Assembly: GCA_040005235.1 (NCBI GenBank)
Contig: JBDTZG010000011.1
Coordinates: 1 to 64,000, forward strand
DNA length: 64,000 bases
Direction: 5' to 3'
DNA from: Acidobacteriota bacterium
GTDB taxonomy: Bacteria; Acidobacteriota; Thermoanaerobaculia; Multivoradales; UBA5704
Shown: one piece after another, positions 11,457 through 48,981 of the stretch
How the letters are laid out: each line of letters starts with the position of its first letter
Numbering within the stretch: position 1 is the stretch's first letter
Notes under the pieces: generated by a model
The model's database searches: none
Seen by the model: only the letters and a program-made list of their open reading frames with translations
Told to the model about the DNA's origin: nothing
Position numbers and translations under genes: made by a program

Positions 11457-11750
11457 GCATAGGTGCGCAGCGTCCGGGCACAGGTGCATTCTTCCAGTGC
11501 ACCTGTGCACTGCGGCTGCGCACATGTGCGCTGGCGGATTGCACAAGTGCAAAATGCAGGAGCACCTCTGCAAAGTCGGAATGCACATGTGCGCCGAGGG
11601 ATTGCCCAGGTCCAAAGTTCCAGCGCACTTGTGCATTGCGGCGTTGCACAAGTGCAAAACTTGGGGGCACTCCTGCAATCCCCTGGTGCACAAATGCAAA
11701 ACGGCGGTGCACCTCTGCAAAACATGGTTGCCCCTGTGCAAAGTGCTTCC
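11457..11750. repeat. array of 14 units at exact 21-bp period; palindromic core TGCAC-NN-GTGCA with variable spacers
   Basis: GCAC/GCCC/GCAT unit starts at 11457, 11478, 11499 ... 11730, every 21 nt. Confidence 0.9.
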
Positions 11751-39743: not shown

Positions 39744-42700
39744 TTACTGCCAATCCCCGTAAACCTGAAACGCCGCCCAGTAGTAGGGAGCGGAGGCGTC
39801 GAAGGGGTGCTTCTCGCCCTTCTCGTCCACGATCTCGATAGGGGCTTCGATCAACTCGCGCTGGGCCGCGCGCAGAGCTTCGTCCTTGGTCTTGCCCGCC
39901 CTCAAGTGGCGGTAGAAGCGGATCATCAGCTCGGCCGTAGCCTGGTCGTTGACGTTCCACAGGCTCGCCATCACGCTCCGCGCCCCAGCGTACTGGAAAG
40001 CTCGGGTAAGGCCGATCAGCCCCTCACCGCCGAGTTCCTTGCCCAGGCCGCTCTCGCAGGCGGAAAGCACCACAAGGTCGGCATCGATCCGCACCCGCTC
40101 GACGATCTCCCAGACCTGGAGGAGGCCGTTGTCGTGTGTGGGCTGGCTTTCGACTTCTGGAGTTTCCGCGGGCACGGTCAAGGCGATGAAAGAGCCGGAG
40201 GGCAGGTGCTCATCAATGCCTGCATGCGCCGCGAAGTGGAGGATGCGCGTCTTCGGGTCGAGGGTCTTCACCCGGTCCTCCAGAGCTTCGGCGCCAAGGA
40301 AGGTGCGGGTCGTCCCGGCAGGGAAAAGGCTCGCGATGCCTTCCACCTCGCGGCGGGTGTAGGGCAGGGGCTGGAAATCGAAGAGACCCCGCTCGGCGGC
40401 ACCACGGACGGTGGGATCGATCCGATCACTCTGAGGAGCTGCTGCCGCGAGGACGGTTTCCACGGGGACATCTTTGAGGGCTGCGAGGTGCTGGGGATAG
40501 ACGGGATCACCGAAGGCCGCCAGGAGAGGCGGTGCCTCTGCACCTACCCCGGAATCCGGTGGCCCTCGGCGTCGGTTCTTCAGTTCGGCGAACACGGTGG
40601 CCGAGAGGGCCACATGCAGGGGCTTCCAGGCGGCGAAGAATTGATCCTGCTCGCCTTCGGCAGAGGTAGCACGGTGAATGAGGGCACCGAAGGGCAAGGC
40701 ATGCAGCGGACCATCGGGGAGGATAAGCAGACGTTCGCTCGCGGCGATGCGCTCTGCGGCCGGCGCAAGCAGGAGGTCGAAAAGCTCGCGGCTCGCTGCC
40801 GTCAGCTGGTTCCTCCGCAGGGCCGCGACCGCTGAGTCTCCCCGTGCCTCGGGCAGGATAGTGAGGAGGTGTTGCACCTTGGCGCGAAGAGCCTCTTCGC
40901 CGAGCGGGATGTTGTATACCTCGAGGGCAGCGTCGTGACCGAGGGTGAAGAGAGCGGACTTGTCTTTGCCTACACTCCAGGAGAGAAGCAATGTGCCTGG
41001 GTCGAGGGCCAGGCGGGCGCGCTCGGCGTCGAGCGGCTCGGGGTAGCGCAAGGCAGCAAGACGGGGGGAGGCTTTGCGGATCTCAACCTCAATATCTCCG
41101 GCCTCGTCGTCGAGGCGGCGTAGTTCGATACGGGCCTCCTTGACCTCCTTCTCATGATCGCGGAGGTTGAGGCCGGCGAGCTTTCTTAGTGTGCGGTCGT
41201 AGAGCACCCCCACCCGACGCCGTTCTCGATCGAGTTCTTCCGGGATATCGCCTGAGAAAGCAATGTCTCGCTCGGAGAGCATTCCAAGGAAGGTTTGGGC
41301 TCGATAGCGTTCGAGGGTCTGGAAGGCTTCGACCTTTTGGTTCTGTGTGAGAAGGAGATCAAGGAAGTCGAAGTAGTAGGAACGGTGTTGGCTCTGGAAG
41401 CCCGCCTCGACGCTGTAGGAACCACCGAGACGGGTGAGTTGGTGGTCAAGGGCTTCGAGGGCACGGAGGAAGTATGAGCGGGCGAGTTCGACCCTGCCTT
41501 GAGCTCGCGTTACAACGGCCAGGTTCCTCAAGGTCGGGGCAGTGAGAAGGCTTCTCGGAGCCTCACGTTCCTGGATCTGTAAAGCACGTAAGTAGAGCGC
41601 CTCCGCCCGACTGAGGTTCCCTTGAGCGCTTTCAACCAACCCAAGGTTGAACAGGCTAGGAGCCACATCAAGACTGGAAGGAGCAAGTCGCTCTCTTAGT
41701 TGGAGCGCGCGCTCGTGGAAATCAGCAGCTGTTCGCCACTCCCCGAGCCTCTGCGCGATAATTCCTAAGCTGTCCAGGCATGTGGCTATCTCAAGGCTTT
41801 CCGTAGAGAGATCCTCGAGTCGCAATGCCTGGGCGTAGTAGGCACGTGCGGTAGCCAGGTCGTCCTGAGACAGTGCAATTGAGCCAAGGTTACTAAGGCT
41901 GACAGCGGAGTTTGTACCTTTAGGAGAGATCAGCTCTTCGAGGCGGAGTGCACTCAGAAGATAATCTTGGGCACGGGAAAAGTCCCCACGTTTCCGAGAT
42001 ACAACACCCAGGTTGTTCAAGGTAGTAGCCATCTCGCGGCCCTGGGGAGACAGATCCTGTTCGACCCTTAACGCCTCGCTGTGATAGCGGTGAGCTTGGT
42101 CGAGTTCGCCAAGATCGGACGCCGCAGTTCCTAAGTTATTGAGGAGCCCTGCCAATTGGAGGCTTCTGGGGGCCAACGCGCTTATGATCTCTAGAGCACT
42201 TGCGTAGTAATCTCGGGCCAATGGCAGCTCTCCTCGCGCCCAAGAGATTGCACCTAACCCGATAAAGTTATTGGCGACGCTGAGACTCTTTGGTGCGCGC
42301 TGCTGCTTGATCTCTAGAGAGCGAAGGTAGTAGTTACGCGCACGCTCAAGGTCGCCTTGACTCTGAGACAGAACAGCCAGATTGCCAAGGCTCCCAGCCA
42401 ACTCTAGGCTCCGAGGTGCCAGCTGTTCCTGTATCCGAAGAGCCTCCAGGAAGTAGTATTTGGCGCGATCAAACCTCCCGGTCGCCCACGCCACCACAGC
42501 AAGATTATTCAGGCTATTAGCCACACCTAGGCTACCGCCGGTGACCTCCTGTTGGGTCCTAAGTGCAAAGGAGTAAGCCGCTCGGGCCGCTTCATATTCA
42601 CTCAGCTGTTCCGAAGCTTCGCCTCGAGCCCCCCACCCAACCAACCTCGCTGTCACACTCTCCGCCCGCTCCACCCCCTCCTGCGCCAATTGTGCCGCCT

Positions 42701-43301
42701 TCCCCCACTCCCCCCTCACACCCCAAACCTCCCCGATTCGCAACAGCATCCATGTTTTCAAGTCCCGCGCATCGCTCTCCGGAACGGCATCGACCAGGGA
42801 ACGCCAGGTGGCCGCCGCCGCTTCCAGATCACCACCGTCCAGCTGCGCTTTGCCCCGCTCGTAGATCTCCTCCAACTCTGGCGCCAACACAGGACGCACC
42901 TTGGCCTCCCAGAGCCCCGGCTCGACGGTGAACTCCTTCGCCTCCTCGCCACGTCGTCCGGTGAGCACTACCGTGCCCCGCGGCGCCTGCTCGATCAGTA
43001 GCTCTTCCCAATCGAAGTAGCCCGCAAGAACGCCCTCCGCCGGCTCCGGGTTCGCAGGTGGGGCGGGAAGGCGCTTCCAGGAGAGGAGCACATCTCCGGC
43101 CTGCACACCCGCCTTCTCGAGCGTCCACCCACCCAACGACTCCACAACTACACCGGTGAGTTCCTCCGCCGTCGGGCTAGGTGATGCTTCGGGCGCCGCC
43201 AGTTCCTTCTGAACCGGTTGCGGGCTAGGGAACAGGAGGCAGGGGAAGAGCAGGGATGCAGCCAGGGCACGAGGAGACGAACCGCGGATCAACATGGGCA
43301 T
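39744..43301 (-). CDS. second secreted PDZ-like + TPR + CHAT protease
   Basis: AGGAGG RBS; GVVVESL..AGVQAGDVLLSW; 42-aa TPRs; HFAAHA, LSACESG, YYWAAF. Confidence 0.9.
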   Translation of the reverse strand: MPMLIRGSSPRALAASLLFPCLLFPSPQPVQKELAAPEASPSPTAEELTGVVVESLGGWTLEKAGVQAGDVLLSWKRLPAPPANPEPAEGVLAGYFDWEELLIEQAPRGTVVLTGRRGEEAKEFTVEPGLWEAKVRPVLAPELEEIYERGKAQLDGGDLEAAAATWRSLVDAVPESDARDLKTWMLLRIGEVWGVRGEWGKAAQLAQEGVERAESVTARLVGWGARGEASEQLSEYEAARAAYSFALRTQQEVTGGSLGVANSLNNLAVVAWATGRFDRAKYYFLEALRIQEQLAPRSLELAGSLGNLAVLSQSQGDLERARNYYLRSLEIKQQRAPKSLSVANNFIGLGAISWARGELPLARDYYASALEIISALAPRSLQLAGLLNNLGTAASDLGELDQAHRYHSEALRVEQDLSPQGREMATTLNNLGVVSRKRGDFSRAQDYLLSALRLEELISPKGTNSAVSLSNLGSIALSQDDLATARAYYAQALRLEDLSTESLEIATCLDSLGIIAQRLGEWRTAADFHERALQLRERLAPSSLDVAPSLFNLGLVESAQGNLSRAEALYLRALQIQEREAPRSLLTAPTLRNLAVVTRAQGRVELARSYFLRALEALDHQLTRLGGSYSVEAGFQSQHRSYYFDFLDLLLTQNQKVEAFQTLERYRAQTFLGMLSERDIAFSGDIPEELDRERRRVGVLYDRTLRKLAGLNLRDHEKEVKEARIELRRLDDEAGDIEVEIRKASPRLAALRYPEPLDAERARLALDPGTLLLSWSVGKDKSALFTLGHDAALEVYNIPLGEEALRAKVQHLLTILPEARGDSAVAALRRNQLTAASRELFDLLLAPAAERIAASERLLILPDGPLHALPFGALIHRATSAEGEQDQFFAAWKPLHVALSATVFAELKNRRRGPPDSGVGAEAPPLLAAFGDPVYPQHLAALKDVPVETVLAAAAPQSDRIDPTVRGAAERGLFDFQPLPYTRREVEGIASLFPAGTTRTFLGAEALEDRVKTLDPKTRILHFAAHAGIDEHLPSGSFIALTVPAETPEVESQPTHDNGLLQVWEIVERVRIDADLVVLSACESGLGKELGGEGLIGLTRAFQYAGARSVMASLWNVNDQATAELMIRFYRHLRAGKTKDEALRAAQRELIEAPIEIVDEKGEKHPFDASAPYYWAAFQVYGDWQ

Positions 43302-43464
43302 GGTCCTCCTGAGGAACAAAACGCGACGAAGAGCGGCCCCGTGGCCCACACGGTTCGAAATGGTCCACCCGGCCTCGAAAGAGCGCTTTTCCCTACGAGC
43401 CCAGATGACCTGCCGGGCTCGACCGTCAAGCGACGGTTCTTGCAAACTCTCACCGGAGGCTTTC

Positions 43465-44388
43465 ATGAAGCTGCACAAACTCCTCGCCCCTGCTCTCCTG
43501 CTTCTCGCCAGCGCTTCACCGCCCCTTGTCGCCCAAGCCGGCCATTCCCTCGACGCTGTCGATGGCAGCCCGGTCGATGCCGTCTTTGTGGACGCAAATG
43601 GAAACGTCGGTATCGGCACCCTCACCCCGGCACAGCCCCTCACGGTCGCCGGTGCTGTTCAGTCCACGGCGGGTGGGTTCATATTCCCCGACGGCACCAC
43701 GCAGTCCACAGCCTCGAACGGCGCGACAGGGGTGGCCGGTGGCGACCTCACGGGGACTTACCCCTACCCCACGATCCAGCTCAATCGCCACGTTCACAAG
43801 CTGGCGGGCTTCCAGGGGGACGTGCTTCTATATGGGGGAGCCGGCATATCGGTCACCTCAGGCGCGCAGGGGCCGATGATCACCGCGCGGCCGCCGGCCC
43901 TGCGATCTTGGAGCGTGCCCGTCTCCAGCCTCGCGCCCGTCCAGCTCGGAGCCGGGGGCCAGGGCGTCTTCTTGGCGCCCAGCTTTCCCATTCCAGTGCC
44001 CGTGTACTACTTCAATGAAGTCAATCCGGGTAGCACCTGGACCGCGGGCATCACCGCTCTTCCCAAGAACGGAGAGGTCGACAATCCGACCCTGACCATG
44101 GAGCTCTTCTGGATGACCAGCGTGGATGGCGGCGATGTGCGCTGGTGGGTGGACTACTCGGCGCGCGCAGAGCTGGCGAAAATGAATCTCGACGCCAGCG
44201 TGCAAGTCACGACGCCGGTCAGCAGCACCGGCAACGACCGCATCTACAAAACCACCATTCCGATCACAACGGGCTTTACCCCGAGTGATGAGCTTCTCGC
44301 CTTCAGTATCGGGCGCCAGAGTGGCTTCGACACCAATACCGGCAAGGTGGCCTTGCTGCAAATTCGGTTCACGTACAAGGCGCCTTGA
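43465..44388 (+). CDS. secreted fibre-like protein
   Basis: GGAGG RBS; signal peptide; GNVGIGT, GGFIFPDGTTQSTA, AGGDLTGTYP motifs typical of trimeric fibre proteins. Confidence 0.7.
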   Translation: MKLHKLLAPALLLLASASPPLVAQAGHSLDAVDGSPVDAVFVDANGNVGIGTLTPAQPLTVAGAVQSTAGGFIFPDGTTQSTASNGATGVAGGDLTGTYPYPTIQLNRHVHKLAGFQGDVLLYGGAGISVTSGAQGPMITARPPALRSWSVPVSSLAPVQLGAGGQGVFLAPSFPIPVPVYYFNEVNPGSTWTAGITALPKNGEVDNPTLTMELFWMTSVDGGDVRWWVDYSARAELAKMNLDASVQVTTPVSSTGNDRIYKTTIPITTGFTPSDELLAFSIGRQSGFDTNTGKVALLQIRFTYKAP

Positions 44389-44511
44389 GTCCAGCACCTC
44401 CAGCGCTCGGCCGGAGAACGACCTTCACCGTGGGAGTCAGCAAATCATCTGGTTCGAATGCCGCGAGCGCCATTCTCGACGCTCGCGGCGGGACTGGAGG
44501 GTGGGCGGTAC

Positions 44512-44913
44512 TTACGCCGCCTTCGGAGCTTCCGCCGCCGCCCGGGCGGTGGTGACCGCCTGGTTGGCTTCGTTGCGTACCTTCAAGGCGGTCCTCTTCC
44601 GGGAGCGCACCTGGGGCCGGACACCGAACTGAATCAACCGTTCGTTGTCAAAACCGTAGTGCGCTTGAAGAATCGCGGCCAACTCGCGACGGATTCTCCG
44701 GCTTTCGTCGGTCAGCTCACGGCGACGTGCGGTTGCATCACGCAACTGACCGCGCAACATCTCCTCGTTGTCGTCGAACTGTTTGGCGCGGAACAGCAGG
44801 TCGGTCAAGGCCGTGTGCTTGTCCTTGCTCTGGGGCAGCTCTTCCAAAACCGACGTGAGGTTTGCGACCAACAGCTCCATGCGGCGAATGTTCTCGGCAA
44901 ACGATGAAGGCAT
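44512..44913 (-). CDS. 133-aa helical/coiled-coil hypothetical protein
   Basis: GGAGG RBS before ATG 44913; heptad-rich; HYGFDNERLIQFGVRP followed by a basic tail. Confidence 0.8.
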   Translation of the reverse strand: MPSSFAENIRRMELLVANLTSVLEELPQSKDKHTALTDLLFRAKQFDDNEEMLRGQLRDATARRRELTDESRRIRRELAAILQAHYGFDNERLIQFGVRPQVRSRKRTALKVRNEANQAVTTARAAAEAPKAA

Positions 44914-44992
44914 AGGCACCTCCGGGGGGCAACGGCCGACCGGCATGGTCGAGCCGACTAAAAACTGCTGAGCGAGGGGATGCGGCTTAGTA

Positions 44993-45252
44993 GGGAATGC
45001 CTCTTTGAGCCGGCGGGAAGGGCATTCCCGGATGGCGGGAAGGCCCCTCCCTGGGGCAGGGAAGGCCCTTCCCAGCGACGGGGAATGCCCCTCCTTGGGC
45101 AAGGAAGGCCCTCCCGAGAAGCAGGGAAGGGCCTTCCCGAGGGCGAGGAAGGGCCTCCCCGGGTGATGGGAATGGCCTTCCCGCCGCCGGGAATGGCCTT
45201 CCTCGCAGCAGGAATGGCCTTCCTGGCGATAGGAATGGCCCTTAGGCTCAAG
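44993..45252. repeat. array of 12 units at 21-22-bp period; palindromic core GGGAAGG-N-CCTTCCC with variable spacers
   Basis: GGAA at 44994, 45016, 45038, 45060, 45082, 45103, 45125, 45147, 45169, 45190, 45211, 45232. Confidence 0.9.
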
Positions 45253-45398
45253 TTGCGGAGCGCAGAGCACGCCTTTATTGTGTTGGGCTACTTTCCGTGG
45301 TCTCACGCGGCGAAGACTAGGCGGAGACCTGCGTCCTGTCAAGCCATCGGACAAAAAAGTTGACTGGGGCTGTAGAACGAGGCTTCAGCGCTGCCGAA

Positions 45399-46301
45399 TC
45401 AAGCAAGCCAAAGCGCCGCCACCATCGCCACCCCTATGACGGCGTAAAGCGCCCGATACCGTGTCTGGAGCCGGCAGGTGCTCGCGTAGGTCAGGCCCTC
45501 GGCCAGGGCTTTAAGCGACCAGCGGAGGTGAAAGGGGTACAGGAGCATCAGGGCCGCGAGAGGACGGGGAAGGATGCCCTCGAAGGCCAGGAAGACGAGC
45601 AGCATGTAGGCCAGGGTGAAGAGAGCCAGGCTGGCGACGAAGGTGCGGCGTCGGCCGAAGATCACCGCGTTGGTTCGCACGGCATTGAGGACGTCGCCCT
45701 GGTGGTCGCGGATCTCTTGGATCAGGTGGCCGGCGGCGAAGGTCAGGCCGAAGAAGGCGGCCAGGGCGAGGCCGCGGGAGTCGATCGTTCCTCCCAGAGA
45801 GTAGCCGAGGAGAAAATGGAGCGCGCCGCCGGTCAGGTGGGCCGCGGAGCTCAAGAGCGGTTTGCCCTTCCAATCGAATCGAGGCAGGGAGTAGAGGGCG
45901 CTCAAAGCGGCGATCGCCAGGGACAGGAAGAGGGGAGTCGGTCCAAGCTGGCTGAAGAGGAAGAGACTTGAGCCCAGCAAGATGGCCATCAAAGCGCCGA
46001 TCTCGTGACGGCCGACTCCCCGCGCCGTGAAGACTCCCGCGGCCTTGTTGGGGTCGGCCAGATCGGTGGCGAGGCCGGACCAGTCGTTGAGCAGGAAGAT
46101 ATGCGCCACCAAAAGGAGGTTGGCGACGACGAGAAGGGCCAGGGGCGCCAGGTTTGCCGCCGTCGGGTGCCGGATCGCGAAAGCGGCACCCAGTAGCGGC
46201 GAACCTTGAAGAACGAGGATTTCCGGCAGGCGCAGGCAGGACAGGTAGCGTGCCGCGGAAGCTTTCGGGTTAGGGACGACTTGAGTGGGAATATTGATCA
46301 T
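45399..46301 (-). CDS. UbiA-family prenyltransferase
   Basis: multi-TM; LLNDWSGLATD, YSLPRFDWK, QEIRDHQGD..RTNAVIFG. Confidence 0.8.
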   Translation of the reverse strand: MINIPTQVVPNPKASAARYLSCLRLPEILVLQGSPLLGAAFAIRHPTAANLAPLALLVVANLLLVAHIFLLNDWSGLATDLADPNKAAGVFTARGVGRHEIGALMAILLGSSLFLFSQLGPTPLFLSLAIAALSALYSLPRFDWKGKPLLSSAAHLTGGALHFLLGYSLGGTIDSRGLALAAFFGLTFAAGHLIQEIRDHQGDVLNAVRTNAVIFGRRRTFVASLALFTLAYMLLVFLAFEGILPRPLAALMLLYPFHLRWSLKALAEGLTYASTCRLQTRYRALYAVIGVAMVAALWLA

Positions 46302-48981
46302 AGAGCCTTAGCCAAAGCGCGTAACCGACGTCTTCCGACCAGTAATAGCGGGAGACCGTCGCGGTGAGATCGTTGTGGTAAAGAAGCGGCGGAGCCTTCC
46401 GCAATAGAGCAAAATCGTCCTTGGAGACCTGACGCAAAATCGACTCGATCCGTGCCGCTTCGGCCGACGGACCGCCAGTTCGTCCGCCGCGCCCCAGAGA
46501 TCGGACGGTAGAAACCCAGATCTCCTGGTCCGGCACCGACGTACGCATCCGGGATTCGGGCAGCTCGATCTTGCAGCCGGCGCGCTCCAGGTCGGTCAAG
46601 CGCAAGATCGGTATCAGCGGCGCCTTTGAATAATAGACCCAGATTCGATCTTGATCAATCACCGTCCGGAGCGCCTTGCAGAGCGCGCGGCCGGCCGGCG
46701 GCTGCGCCTTGGACAGCAGCAGCAGCAAGTGCATCTGAATGGCGATGTCGGCGGGGTTGGGATCCTTGCCCGGATCCAGGCACTGGTAGGCCTCCCGCGG
46801 GGCGAGCCAGGTGCGGTAGAGCCCCTCGGGGGTGCGATATTGGGCGAGGGTGGCGAGAGCGGCCGAAAGACGACGGCGGTCGGAGTCGGGTGCGAGCCTC
46901 CAGACGAGCGCCGTGTCGTCGGAATCCGGCGTGATGGGGCACCCGAGGGTGCCGATTCCCGGGGCGTCCGGCAGGCCGTGGTATCGCACGAGGCCCCCGG
47001 CTTCGATCTGGCGGGTGAGGTGCCGCCGGGCGCGCTCCAAGCTCTCTCCGAGACCACCAGAGGTCGCCAGCGGATCGAGCAGCTCGACCAGGAGAGAGGT
47101 GAGGAAGGTGTTCATCTCGGGGTGCGGGTCTTCGAAGCGGGCCGCCTTCGTGTAGGAGGTCAGCCAGTACCCCGGCTCTTGCTGGTGCTCGCGAACCCTC
47201 GCCGCCGCCGTCTTCGCGAGATCCGCGAGGTCCCCGCCTTCGAGCGGCGTCGCCTTTCCTCCCTCTCGCTGGCCGGAAGGTTGGCCGGAAAGCTGCCCGA
47301 TGCGGCCCGGCGGATTCTTGCCGCCCGGCGCGGCTGCTGCCTGTACGGTCAGCTTGCGCTCTCCCAGGTAATACCCCTCGCCGCTGCCGGAGGCCCAGGC
47401 GAAGGCGGTCAAGTGGTGCTCGCCGGAAGACAGGCCGGACGTATCGAGTGGGATGCGCCAGCCGGCGGGACTTGACGCGCGCTGCGCGGCGCGGAGGTCG
47501 GGCCGGTCGAAGAAGGCGCGGGAGGCGACGAGCGGCTGGCCATCGAACGAGACGGCCACCTGCTTGGGCGTCGCCGAGCCGGCCAGCGCCCAACCGACGG
47601 CGACGATCTCCTGGCCGGCGGTGATGGCGGCCGTCGCCCGGCCTCCCGTCTCGATCGCTTCGAGATCGCCTCCCATTTCGATCCATAGCTCCGCCGGGGC
47701 AGGGCCATGCCGCAAGGCGGCGACGAACGGCGCGTTTCGCCAGTCCCACGCGGAGGCAATCAAACCGTCCGTCGCGCTGATGTACCAGAAGGCCCCAATG
47801 ATTTCGATGGCGACCGCCAAGCCCACCGCGACCCCGAACAAGATCCGGCCGAGTACGCGCAACGAGGTGACGACCGGTACCAGCATCCAAAAGAGCATCG
47901 GCAGGAAGTCGGTGAGATAGCGCGAGCCCCAGTAGATGCCGGTCCGCCAGTCGGTTTTGGCGTAGAGCAGGATCTGGAGGACGACGGCGATTCGGAGCGC
48001 CAGGGCGAGGCCGCGGTCTTCCGGCGGCAGCCGCCAGGCCAGGACGAGGAAGAGCAGGAAGGGCGAGAAGATGAACAGCCCCCGCGTCGGGCTGAACAGC
48101 AATCCGCCGAGACCGGACCCCAGGTCATGGCGAAAAAAGGCGGCCCTGCCCATTCTGCCGTACGCCCCGGCGAAGTTGTGGGCCACGCCGAGGTTATAAA
48201 GAAGCACCAGCCCCATCGGCAGCGCCGCGGCGGCGACGAGCAGCACCGCTTTGCGTCCGGCCCAGAACAGACCGTAAGCACCCAGCGCCGCCGCGAGGAG
48301 GGCGTCGGGAGGGCGGTTTCCGGCGAGGAGCCCGCACAGCAAACCCACCGCCAGCACCCGCGGCCAGGTGGCCGGCCCGGTGAGAAGCAGCAGCGCGCCG
48401 ACCACCAGAAGCTCGGCCATCCCATGCTGCCAGAGGGCCTGGCTGCCGATCATCCAGGTGGTGGTGCCAAAGGCATAGGCCAGGGTGAGGAGCACCGCGA
48501 TCGAAACCGAGGCCCGGCGCCGCAGAAGCAGGTAGAGGAGCGACGCGGAGAGCGCCGCCACGAACGAGGCGCAGAGCTTCTCCATCACCCGGGCCACGTG
48601 GTCCAGACGCGCATCCGTCCAGCCTTTCAGGTTCAGGTAGCCGACCGCGGGAAGGTAGAGCGGCGCAAGAAGCACCGGCAGCACCACAGGATAGAGCGAG
48701 ATCGTAGGGCCTCCGGGCAACGGCACCATCCAGAACGGCGCATCGCCTCGGCCCTGGGCCGTGAGCCGAACGATCGGATCGAGAAGAACGCTGTGATTGC
48801 GCCAGATCGAGAACGGCAGGTAGCGCGCGGGGTAGGTGTCGCCGGCACTGATCGCCCGCCCGTTGGCGTTGTAGACCAGCAGACAGCAGAGCCCGATGAG
48901 CAGGCTCGCCCACAGATCACGAGACCGCTTTGTCGACGTCGGGTCCACCTGGATGCGAGTCAATGCACTACCCCCGGACAT
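46270..48981 (-). CDS. fusion: GT-C-like polytopic domain + Ig-like domain + class II terpene cyclase-like domain
   Basis: SQALWQHG, GLLFSPTRGLFIFSP, WGSRYL (GT-C-like); GWAL..RPDL..GW (Ig-like); QQEPGYW, PDSDDTAL, GLYRTWL (squalene-hopene cyclase-like fold motifs). Confidence 0.65.
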   Translation of the reverse strand: MSGGSALTRIQVDPTSTKRSRDLWASLLIGLCCLLVYNANGRAISAGDTYPARYLPFSIWRNHSVLLDPIVRLTAQGRGDAPFWMVPLPGGPTISLYPVVLPVLLAPLYLPAVGYLNLKGWTDARLDHVARVMEKLCASFVAALSASLLYLLLRRRASVSIAVLLTLAYAFGTTTWMIGSQALWQHGMAELLVVGALLLLTGPATWPRVLAVGLLCGLLAGNRPPDALLAAALGAYGLFWAGRKAVLLVAAAALPMGLVLLYNLGVAHNFAGAYGRMGRAAFFRHDLGSGLGGLLFSPTRGLFIFSPFLLFLVLAWRLPPEDRGLALALRIAVVLQILLYAKTDWRTGIYWGSRYLTDFLPMLFWMLVPVVTSLRVLGRILFGVAVGLAVAIEIIGAFWYISATDGLIASAWDWRNAPFVAALRHGPAPAELWIEMGGDLEAIETGGRATAAITAGQEIVAVGWALAGSATPKQVAVSFDGQPLVASRAFFDRPDLRAAQRASSPAGWRIPLDTSGLSSGEHHLTAFAWASGSGEGYYLGERKLTVQAAAAPGGKNPPGRIGQLSGQPSGQREGGKATPLEGGDLADLAKTAAARVREHQQEPGYWLTSYTKAARFEDPHPEMNTFLTSLLVELLDPLATSGGLGESLERARRHLTRQIEAGGLVRYHGLPDAPGIGTLGCPITPDSDDTALVWRLAPDSDRRRLSAALATLAQYRTPEGLYRTWLAPREAYQCLDPGKDPNPADIAIQMHLLLLLSKAQPPAGRALCKALRTVIDQDRIWVYYSKAPLIPILRLTDLERAGCKIELPESRMRTSVPDQEIWVSTVRSLGRGGRTGGPSAEAARIESILRQVSKDDFALLRKAPPLLYHNDLTATVSRYYWSEDVGYALWLRLYDQYSHSSRP

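Follow-up and report, generated by a model that had tools for sequence, protein, structure and literature searches.

Why should a small gene stand beside a strictly phased array of palindromes, and does the array belong to the gene? The question is raised by a stretch of 64,000 nucleotides from an Acidobacteriota bacterium (here called the window; contig JBDTZG010000011.1, positions 1 to 64,000), in which 12 units of 21 or 22 bp, each with a palindromic core, lie upstream of an unannotated gene for a helical protein of 133 amino acids (aa). We find that the pairing of such a small-protein gene with its own phased array is widespread in one family of soil Acidobacteria. Our tentative explanation, in which we place a little less than even confidence, is that the arrays are the cognate DNA-binding sites of the adjoining protein, which would form a nucleoprotein filament on them, and that the window array, lying in the leader of its gene, would serve self-repression.

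The units of the window array consist of a dyad core, GGGAA-N5-TTCCC, and a variable spacer of 6 to 7 bp. The 15-bp cores start at 44993, 45015, 45037, 45059, 45081, 45102, 45124, 45146, 45168, 45189, 45210, and 45231, giving unit spacings of 22, 22, 22, 22, 21, 22, 22, 22, 21, 21, and 21; the spacings claimed in an earlier reading of the letters alone (the original prediction), which described 12 degenerate 15-bp palindromes, are thus reproduced exactly. The copy at 45124-45138, GGGAAGGGCCTTCCC, is perfect. Tandem Repeats Finder detects three periods across 45012-45240, namely, 21, 22, and 44. When at most one mismatch is allowed, the core pattern has 21 matches on the two strands of the window, 19 of them inside the array, against an expectation of 1.62 per window and a maximum of 6 in 100 shuffles. 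Mean pairwise identity within the array is 0.74 for cores and 0.34 for spacers; core positions GGAA, G7, and C9 are invariant in all units, and 61/84 pairs of dyad positions are complementary. A coding reading of the array was rejected because the mixed 21/22 spacing disrupts all frames and the true gene start lies elsewhere with its own Shine-Dalgarno sequence, which supports the earlier claim that the array is noncoding. Rfam, searched at an E value of ≤1 over 43500-46500, returned sub-threshold microRNA-model noise on the array and nothing else.

The source genome of the window (G000; 6.22 Mb, 66% GC; C numbers below are its contigs unless another genome is named) contains 27 paralogues of the protein, found by tblastn and an iterated hidden Markov model search: 24 full-length copies of 115 to 141 aa, all with a strong Shine-Dalgarno sequence, and 3 truncated ones. 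Linkage was measured as the fraction of 8-mers recurring at a lag of 20 to 22 or 40 to 44 bp in a 450-bp flank of each copy, and the threshold, the 99th percentile of 4000 random 450-bp windows of G000, was applied unchanged to other genomes. Upstream, 17 of the 24 full-length copies exceed it; downstream, 0/24 do. A genome of another genus (G014, one contig) has an array upstream of 16/16 copies and downstream of 3 (marginal). Two further genera, represented by G009 and G013, have it upstream of 0/7 and 2/30 copies and downstream of 5/7 and 11/30, respectively. The same picture emerges with a stricter Tandem Repeats Finder criterion, and an upstream array is present at 10/26 best-hit loci of other genomes with enough upstream DNA. 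The check proposed with the original prediction, that arrays should consistently adjoin homologues, was therefore positive in G000 and G014. The downstream-array loci of G009 and G013 follow a fixed order: a sigma-70-like promoter, a leader hairpin, the gene, a stem-plus-T-run terminator, and the array. A terminator-like element of this kind follows the stop codon in 11/16 downstream-array modules, and in the G009 and G013 examples read, a promoter would not fit between it and the array.

This polar adjacency, set against the 1% of random windows that pass the threshold, argues against a repeat independent of the protein, that is, a selfish or structural minisatellite that arose by slippage or was mobilized near hairpins and terminators and with which the gene merely travels. 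We consider that explanation improbable also because the spacers all differ while the cores are kept, unlike in a young slippage product, and because array type and protein orthologue go together from species to species, as described below. It draws strength from the abundance of similar repeats, namely, ∼115 intergenic arrays of many sequence types that are overrepresented between convergent genes and have unrelated genes as neighbors, and from two signs of mobility, also given below: one array copy without a gene is missing from the syntenic spacer of a relative, and the presence of a module downstream of the UbiA gene varies among close relatives.

The genome-wide set was obtained by running Tandem Repeats Finder on G000 and merging hits into loci. 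It comprises 138 loci, 27,558 bp in total, whose periods are close to 21 bp or a multiple of it; of these loci, 115 are intergenic according to our own codon-model gene caller, which is crude and shortens some starts (e.g., that of the CHAT gene). The 23 "genic" loci mostly fall in low-scoring open reading frames (ORFs) formed by the repeat sequence, with a few genuine coding repeats among them. Among the 115 intergenic arrays, the base period is 20 bp in 34, 21 bp in 50, 22 bp in 1, 40 to 44 bp in 21, and other in 9 (including two CRISPR arrays); with 84/115 at 20 or 21 bp and 21/115 at 40 to 44 bp, a phasing of two helical turns runs across unrelated sequences. Unit sequences are very diverse, and single-linkage clustering by common 9-mers was uninformative, chaining 111/138 loci into one group. 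Some of these arrays have a 41-bp period made of units in alternating orientation, with a dyad axis every ∼20.5 bp (C42:68262-68505, C54:65368-65589, C18:198575-198855, C58:11752-12033, C85:2284-2578, and C121:46984-47187); those on C42, C54, C18, and C58 have units in common with the array, of 21-bp period, that precedes the C8:55420 paralogue. The window itself contains a second tandem array, at 11492-11655, with a 63-bp period of TGCAC..GTGCA dyads, a type also found on C66, C98, and C124. The CRISPR arrays, at C45:5-504 and C68:66895-68055, have a ∼32-nucleotide (nt) repeat and periods of 65 to 67 bp and are unrelated to the 20- to 22-bp arrays.

Where does the module in the window begin and end? 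Within the genus, for which 8 genomes including G000 were compared, the orthologous module is carried by G006. Comparison of the two loci by blastn yields a homologous block of window positions 44461-45235 plus 45300-45365, which extends from ∼30 nt before the −35 box through a hairpin behind the gene; the flanks are unrelated, and the ORFs flanking the G006 module have no counterpart near the window locus. The features of the module are as follows.

44461..45365, minus strand: whole module (promoter, leader, array, hairpin, gene, and 3′ hairpin), common to G006 by blastn.
45314..45342, minus strand: promoter-like element TTGACA-N17-TAGTCT facing the array and gene (−35 at 45342-45337, −10 at 45319-45314), from conservation in G006.
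44993..45252, no strand assigned: tandem array of 12 units of 21/22 bp, from the sequence, Tandem Repeats Finder, and the pattern count.
44933..44956, minus strand: leader stem-loop located after the array and before the Shine-Dalgarno sequence, with a bulged GC-rich stem and a loop of 5 nt (−15.4 kcal/mol, z = −2.2).
44919..44923, minus strand: Shine-Dalgarno sequence GGAGG, 5 nt before the ATG, read from the sequence.
44512..44913, minus strand: gene for the all-helical protein of 133 aa, from the ORF, its conservation, and AlphaFold2.
44460..44489, minus strand: 3′ stem-loop GCCGCGAGCG-N10-CGCTCGCGGC, the 3′ boundary of the conserved module; G000/G006 homology stops right after it.

Codon positions 1, 2, and 3 of the ORF are 0.94, 0.98, and 0.84 identical to those of the G006 orthologue; we conclude from these sequence comparisons that the ORF is under purifying selection and is a real gene. 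AAGGAG or GGAGG precedes the start codon in all 24 full-length G000 paralogues. The G006 counterpart of the promoter reads TTGACA-N17-TAATCT, and the DNA between promoter and array is poorly conserved. A scan for consensus promoters missed the element because its −10 box is weak, fitting the consensus at just 3/6 positions; the same consensus scan of 44300-45500 gave 0 terminators. In 104 upstream regions of family members, the motif TTGACN-N16-18-TAnnnT has 24 sense and 2 antisense matches. It lies mostly 90 to 210 nt before the gene in modules that lack an upstream array; of the upstream-array modules, 8/36 have a match, which is distal to the array in 5 (the window and G006 modules among them), proximal in 2, and inside it in 1. 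A strict promoter pattern, searched in the 24 upstream regions of G000, matches only the window module and that on C119. Since the conserved promoter is upstream of the array, the window array probably lies in a transcribed leader.

The hairpin between array and gene and the gap of about 80 bp to the ATG, both claimed earlier, were confirmed: the proximal core starts 80 bp from the ATG (44913). Of 15 leaders folded singly, 14 have a stem-loop at the same place, with differing sequences and with z ≤ −2 in 9/15. These stem-loops are GC rich, have loops of 4 to 6 nt (mostly 5) and usually a one-base bulge, and end a few bases before the Shine-Dalgarno sequence; T-rich tracts follow several of them. 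A consensus fold of 18 leaders contained 0 pairs, the alignment being too divergent. The 3′ stem-loop, which has no T-run after it, may act as a terminator. Around the module, a TPR-CHAT protein of 1299 aa is encoded at 39744-43643 (minus strand), a UbiA-family prenyltransferase at 45399-46301, and a protein of 903 aa at 46270-48981 (minus strand); the last has no Pfam match, reads as hydrophobic in its first half, and overlaps the start of the UbiA gene.

What kind of protein is encoded beside the arrays? The 24 full-length members have no match in Pfam, NCBIfam, or PADLOC, nor among PDB sequences. A Foldseek search of the window-protein model against the PDB gave no match at an E value of ≤0.001, a wide fold search of the model with VIA-align gave generic helical hairpins only (Z ≤ 7), and the ESM Atlas gave only unnamed Acidobacteriota clusters. 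One source attributes a close relative of the protein to a Thermoanaerobaculia bacterium. A profile search of 1.84 billion representatives detected 1329 clusters (50% identity) at an E value of ≤0.001 and 627 at ≤1e−10; the best 150 matches listed are 105 to 192 aa long, bar one of 337 aa. The family is lineage specific and highly expanded: it is present in 23/24 genomes of the same taxonomic family, with 4 to 47 matches each, and in 0/16 genomes of other families of the order. In a phylum-wide sample, a weak match was seen in 1/300 other genomes, with only 14 candidates per genome scored.

AlphaFold2, run with the paralogue alignment, predicts an all-helical protein (mean pLDDT 90.9; helices at residues 5-20, 27-86, 91-96, and 104-127), with a conserved motif, G-F-x-N-P-x-L-x-x-F-G-x-R, followed by a basic tail; the earlier description of a helical protein of 133 aa with such a tail holds. 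A homodimer is predicted with an ipSAE of 0.59 against 0.00 for the best control, the runs agreeing in at least 96% of contacts and the partner pLDDT being 82; this mark is reached by 20/30 proteins whose solved structures pair one chain with itself and by 1/23 solved as single chains, a calibration that is rough here because the alignment was our own. Residue 36 contacts 74/78, residue 32 contacts 78/81, and residue 39 contacts 67-71, which indicates that the two chains run antiparallel, and the predicted dimer is a two-fold symmetric rod along helix 28-85. Such a geometry would put the conserved C-terminal motif and the basic tail at opposite ends of the rod. When ORFs from −8 to +5 kb of the 27 loci were compared all against all, no common neighbor family emerged beyond the protein itself and shadow ORFs. 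At five family loci, the array or the small-protein gene comes immediately after a gene resembling pterin-4a-carbinolamine dehydratase/DCoH (PF01329; the C52 copy scores E = 3.7e−14): C52:8150-8506, C59:71175-71531 (which joins C127:1-690), C123:12258-12557, and upstream of the C10 and C69 copies. Eukaryotic DCoH binds a helical dimerization domain, and by analogy a physical partnership of the DCoH-like and small helical proteins is conceivable.

Does the array belong to the particular protein beside it? Related paralogues have related cores (C111/C139, C107/C126, C118/C18:24272, and L091/L093/L107 of G013). Among the 8 genus genomes, only G000 and G006 contain tandem GGAAKGSCCNTCC pairs, and these are the two that have an orthologue of the window protein of at least 92% identity. 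The C8:55420 protein has orthologues of 63 to 82% identity in all 7 other genus genomes, and its array DNA is found in 5/7, missing in G007, which is fragmented, and in G003, where the orthologue is 63% identical. The orthologue in G002, G004, and G005 has an array of this type immediately before it, and array identity declines together with protein identity. Thus, in a further check proposed with the original prediction, that the core should change with the protein, array type follows the orthologue across the genus genomes, which is consistent with recognition.

Array types are also found away from their genes. For 8/11 strong modules, the type occurs at other loci as well, and by blastn these array-only loci share with the module its array part alone. 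The window type recurs at C24:76282-76479 with a 43-bp period and alternating units; this copy is missing from the syntenic spacer of G003, where ∼87 bp separate the conserved flanks that are ∼401 bp apart in G000. Downstream of its UbiA gene (91% identical), G003 has an array of another type, CCGAATTCGATTTTC, and another paralogue, in which a TAG falls in frame. At this locus (G003:C21:62862-66761, ∼80 to 800 bp past the UbiA stop), the TAG comes after ∼21 codons of the paralogue, and the syntenic module of G003 is probably decaying. G002 and G006 have no module downstream of UbiA. These comparisons indicate that close relatives gain, lose, and swap both modules and arrays.

How might a protein and an array of this kind work together? 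The sequences show the anatomy, the linkage of gene and array, the co-occurrence of array type and orthologue, and a rapid turnover, and modeling predicts a homodimer. The explanation that we prefer, a cognate protein-DNA module that would act in the manner of a centromere or operator complex but without a partition motor, goes further and infers DNA binding, filament formation, a ruler role of the helix, autoregulation, and a cellular role. Dimers would bind the dyad cores and align cooperatively on one face of the DNA, with the period of 20 to 22 bp (two helical turns) set by the conserved length of a helix of ∼60 residues; variable residues would read the core sequence, so that each paralogue would have its own array type. 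Arithmetic, not model coordinates, gives ∼87 Å for a helix of ∼58 residues and ∼72 to 75 Å for a 21- to 22-bp unit. These lengths suggest that dimers could span neighboring units, each dyad core being held by the ends of two adjacent dimers. Because the window array sits between the conserved promoter and the gene, once loaded it could block or dampen transcription of its own gene, a self-repression by roadblock, and array-only copies of the same core, such as that on C24, may be further loading sites. Across arrays, the dyad arms of the cores are 6 to 11 bp long, many with centers of 0 to 1 nt. An array that can be 5′ or 3′ of the gene yet keeps next to it fits, by analogy, a cis DNA site like sopC or parC. 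Of the two mechanisms offered in the original prediction, same-face DNA sites fit better, given the two-turn period, the dyads, and the predicted homodimer, and the hairpin-array RNA is disfavored.

A more far-reaching version of this idea, which we think unlikely, is an orthogonal "ruler" class, in which antiparallel dimers of fixed length would polymerize head-to-head on tandem dyads, with rod length dictating the 20- to 22-bp period. Each paralogue (up to ∼47 per genome) would have a private array, and the arrays, those in cis and the dispersed ones without a gene alike, either would persist and spread only with their binder or would be chromosomal address tags that bridge distant loci. The partnership would be replicator-like, analogous to REPIN-RAYT without the transposase.

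Several observations weigh against binding of the arrays by the adjoining protein. By the lag test, 7/24 copies in G000 and 17/30 in G013 lack an adjoining array, and just ∼17 of the ∼115 intergenic arrays of G000 adjoin a family member. Arrays are enriched at convergent junctions (29/95 of those with two flanking genes versus 726/4737, or 15%, overall, as judged with the crude gene caller), and the genes beside 18 array-only loci have no common functional theme; they include genes for desaturase, proteasome-like, YHS-domain, HigB, polysaccharide exporter, DUF11 giant, AIR-synthase-like, PntB, aminotransferase, sulfatase, AcrB, NrsF, and GNAT proteins. Co-inheritance of a linked module would also make array type track the protein. 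Between G000 and G006, core arms of the window array are 84% identical (101/120) and spacers 62% (50/80), a difference that counts in favor of binding, but unit-shifted alignment inside a repeat can inflate such between-species core identity. On the protein side, predictors readily yield coiled-coil homodimers, and Pfam, PDB sequence, and fold searches found no recognizable DNA-binding domain.

Could the array act as RNA instead? It would then be transcribed as small hairpins, as a leader or a separate RNA, and be bound or processed by the protein, either in the manner of a type III toxin-antitoxin system or as an RNA that sponges up the protein, with the hairpin before the gene as an attenuator or terminator. 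The conserved promoter upstream of the array in the window and G006, its distal position in 5/8 upstream-array modules with the motif, and the stem-loop between array and gene in 14/15 leaders, several with a T-rich tract behind it, all agree with this reading, and hairpins with loops of three bases can still arise from small dyads. The order of promoter, repeats, hairpin, and gene also resembles ToxIN (PMC3401426, PMC8860590). We nevertheless regard it as quite unlikely. In G009 and G013, the arrays lie behind the gene, after a terminator-like element in 11/16 cases and with no promoter room in the examples read. Over 15 arrays, sense and antisense fold energies do not differ (sense lower in 6/15, Wilcoxon P = 0.39), and the dyad mismatches of the window array show no G-U bias (of 23, 7 are G-U compatible on the sense strand versus 5 on the other strand). 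Core centers are often 0 to 1 nt, no member matches a ToxN/AbiQ-type or any PADLOC toxin family, and Rfam gave only the sub-threshold noise described above. A CsrA/Rsm-type sponge, considered because many units contain GGA, was set aside; the one array that has a GGA-loop hairpin (the C126 type) has it on the antisense strand.

Could the binder be a different protein altogether? The arrays might be operators of other paralogous regulators, of the helix-turn-helix (HTH)-TPR or small XRE-like kind, with the small helical protein as the regulated output rather than the binder. Dyad sites are typical of HTH dimers, and arrays do lie 2 to 105 bp past the stop codons of HTH-TPR genes (e.g., C137:4066-4180, C18:147079-147431, and C8:182080-182207) as well as after members of an XRE-like family of 125 to 146 aa on C128, C135, C21, and C99. 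We judge this very unlikely: no regulator gene is conserved near the 27 family loci (−8 to +5 kb), array type follows the phylogeny of the small protein, and the regulator-side arrays sit at the 3′ ends of the regulators. In the XRE-like HTH genes, another family of small genes is linked to arrays, which have 20-bp periods and begin 5 to 218 bp past the stop, on the 3′ side (C128:9658-10035, C135:31168-31557, C21:75760-76200, and C99:1898-2275). The HTH-TPR regulator genes, all outside the window, have partner genes that encode small secreted peptides with Cys-loop repeats (GC-x-IDP-x-G-x-C), and 21-bp CCAG..CACCACTGAGCTGG arrays lie just past the regulator stops (C137:2614-4180, C18:145499-147431, C8:181766-183802, and C111:117647-121784).

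What follows depends on whether the proteins bind the arrays. If they do, the 1329 profile clusters would make up a large family of proteins that recognize specific DNA sequences, so far unannotated and built on a new fold logic. A single genome would then contain dozens of protein-site pairs, each orthogonal to the others, as a natural parts list for the study of specificity divergence and for synthetic biology, and the >100 intergenic arrays of two-helical-turn period in these soil Acidobacteria genomes would be accounted for. The principle of a protein plus a private repeat family, known from plasmid centromeres and REPIN-RAYT, would be extended to a chromosomal system that has neither motor nor transposase. 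If they do not, a tight, polar, and evolutionarily persistent linkage of gene and minisatellite would still need explaining.

How does the module compare with known systems? The claim that it fits no named element is borne out by Pfam, NCBIfam, PADLOC, PDB, and Rfam, all of which were blank, and our literature searches found no description of this protein-array pairing. CRISPR repeats of ∼23 to 50 nt alternate with unique spacers about as long and have cas genes close by; a CRISPR array was rejected for the module, in which 15-bp cores alternate with spacers of 6 to 7 bp, the real CRISPR arrays of G000 (periods of 65 to 67 bp) being those on C45 and C68. Iteron origins have direct repeats of ∼20 bp, about two helical turns, beside the gene of the binding protein, and the module is iteron-like in having an array of ∼20-bp units phased at about two turns beside a gene. 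Unlike iteron-Rep systems, it has no match to a winged-helix Rep initiator, its proteins are all-helical and of 115 to 141 aa, and there are dozens of loci per chromosome. Compared with ribbon-helix-helix and HTH proteins, the small protein has no family match in Pfam or by PDB sequence, yields only generic helical hits in fold searches (Z ≤ 7), and is modeled as a long antiparallel coiled coil.

Repeats of type III toxin-antitoxin systems are ∼36 nt long. These systems (ToxIN, CptIN, and TenpIN) resemble the window in the order of promoter, short tandem repeats, stem-loop, and small gene (PMC3401426, PMC8860590). On the other hand, 0/24 members match a ToxN/AbiQ-type family (Pfam at an E value of ≤1, PADLOC at ≤0.01), the units are of 20 to 22 bp with dyad cores, and array-only copies exist. 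An array upstream of the gene, as in the type III layout, is seen in the window and G014, whereas in G009 (5/7) and G013 (11/30) it is downstream, usually past a terminator-like hairpin.

The REP/REPIN-RAYT systems share with our modules dispersed intergenic palindromic repeats, each family tied to one flanked gene, and they likewise occur as several families per genome with lineage-specific persistence (PMC3337134, PMC3116915, 10.1101/2022.05.22.493013). Here too, cis arrays and array-only copies of the same type coexist, mostly in intergenic DNA. Unlike RAYT, the helical protein of 115 to 140 aa has no HUH/Y1 transposase match (Pfam and NCBIfam, 24 members); unlike REPINs, the repeats are tandem arrays of 5 to 20 phased units, not single or paired palindromes; and there is no evidence that the protein moves the arrays. 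BldC of Streptomyces offers a different parallel, for it is reported to be a very small protein that forms cooperative head-to-tail multimers on variable numbers of direct repeats (PMC5859096). It differs in being a MerR-like HTH protein and a single-copy global regulator with no private array beside its gene.

Partition centromeres (sopC/SopB of F and parC/ParR of R1) likewise have a tandem array of inverted-repeat cores beside the gene of the coating protein. A 16-bp inverted repeat is reported within each of the 12 repeats of 43 bp that make up sopC, and partition arrays are either upstream, as promoter and operator (parC), or downstream (sopC); Clostridium perfringens plasmids, with ∼10 ParMRC specificity families, illustrate that orthogonal protein-site pairs can coexist (PMC3177203, PMC2241845, PMC9426499). 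Unlike in partition systems, the 27 loci have no ParA, ParM, or TubZ gene, nor any other conserved neighbor, from −8 to +5 kb, and the modules are chromosomal and present in 4 to 47 copies per genome, with array-only copies dispersed. Because a defining feature of each system was looked for and found lacking, we conclude that the module falls outside the type III toxin-antitoxin, ParR/parC, iteron-Rep, REPIN-RAYT, or CRISPR systems. What it does have in common with partition systems is its anatomy, a tandem array adjoining the gene of a small protein that is its putative binder.

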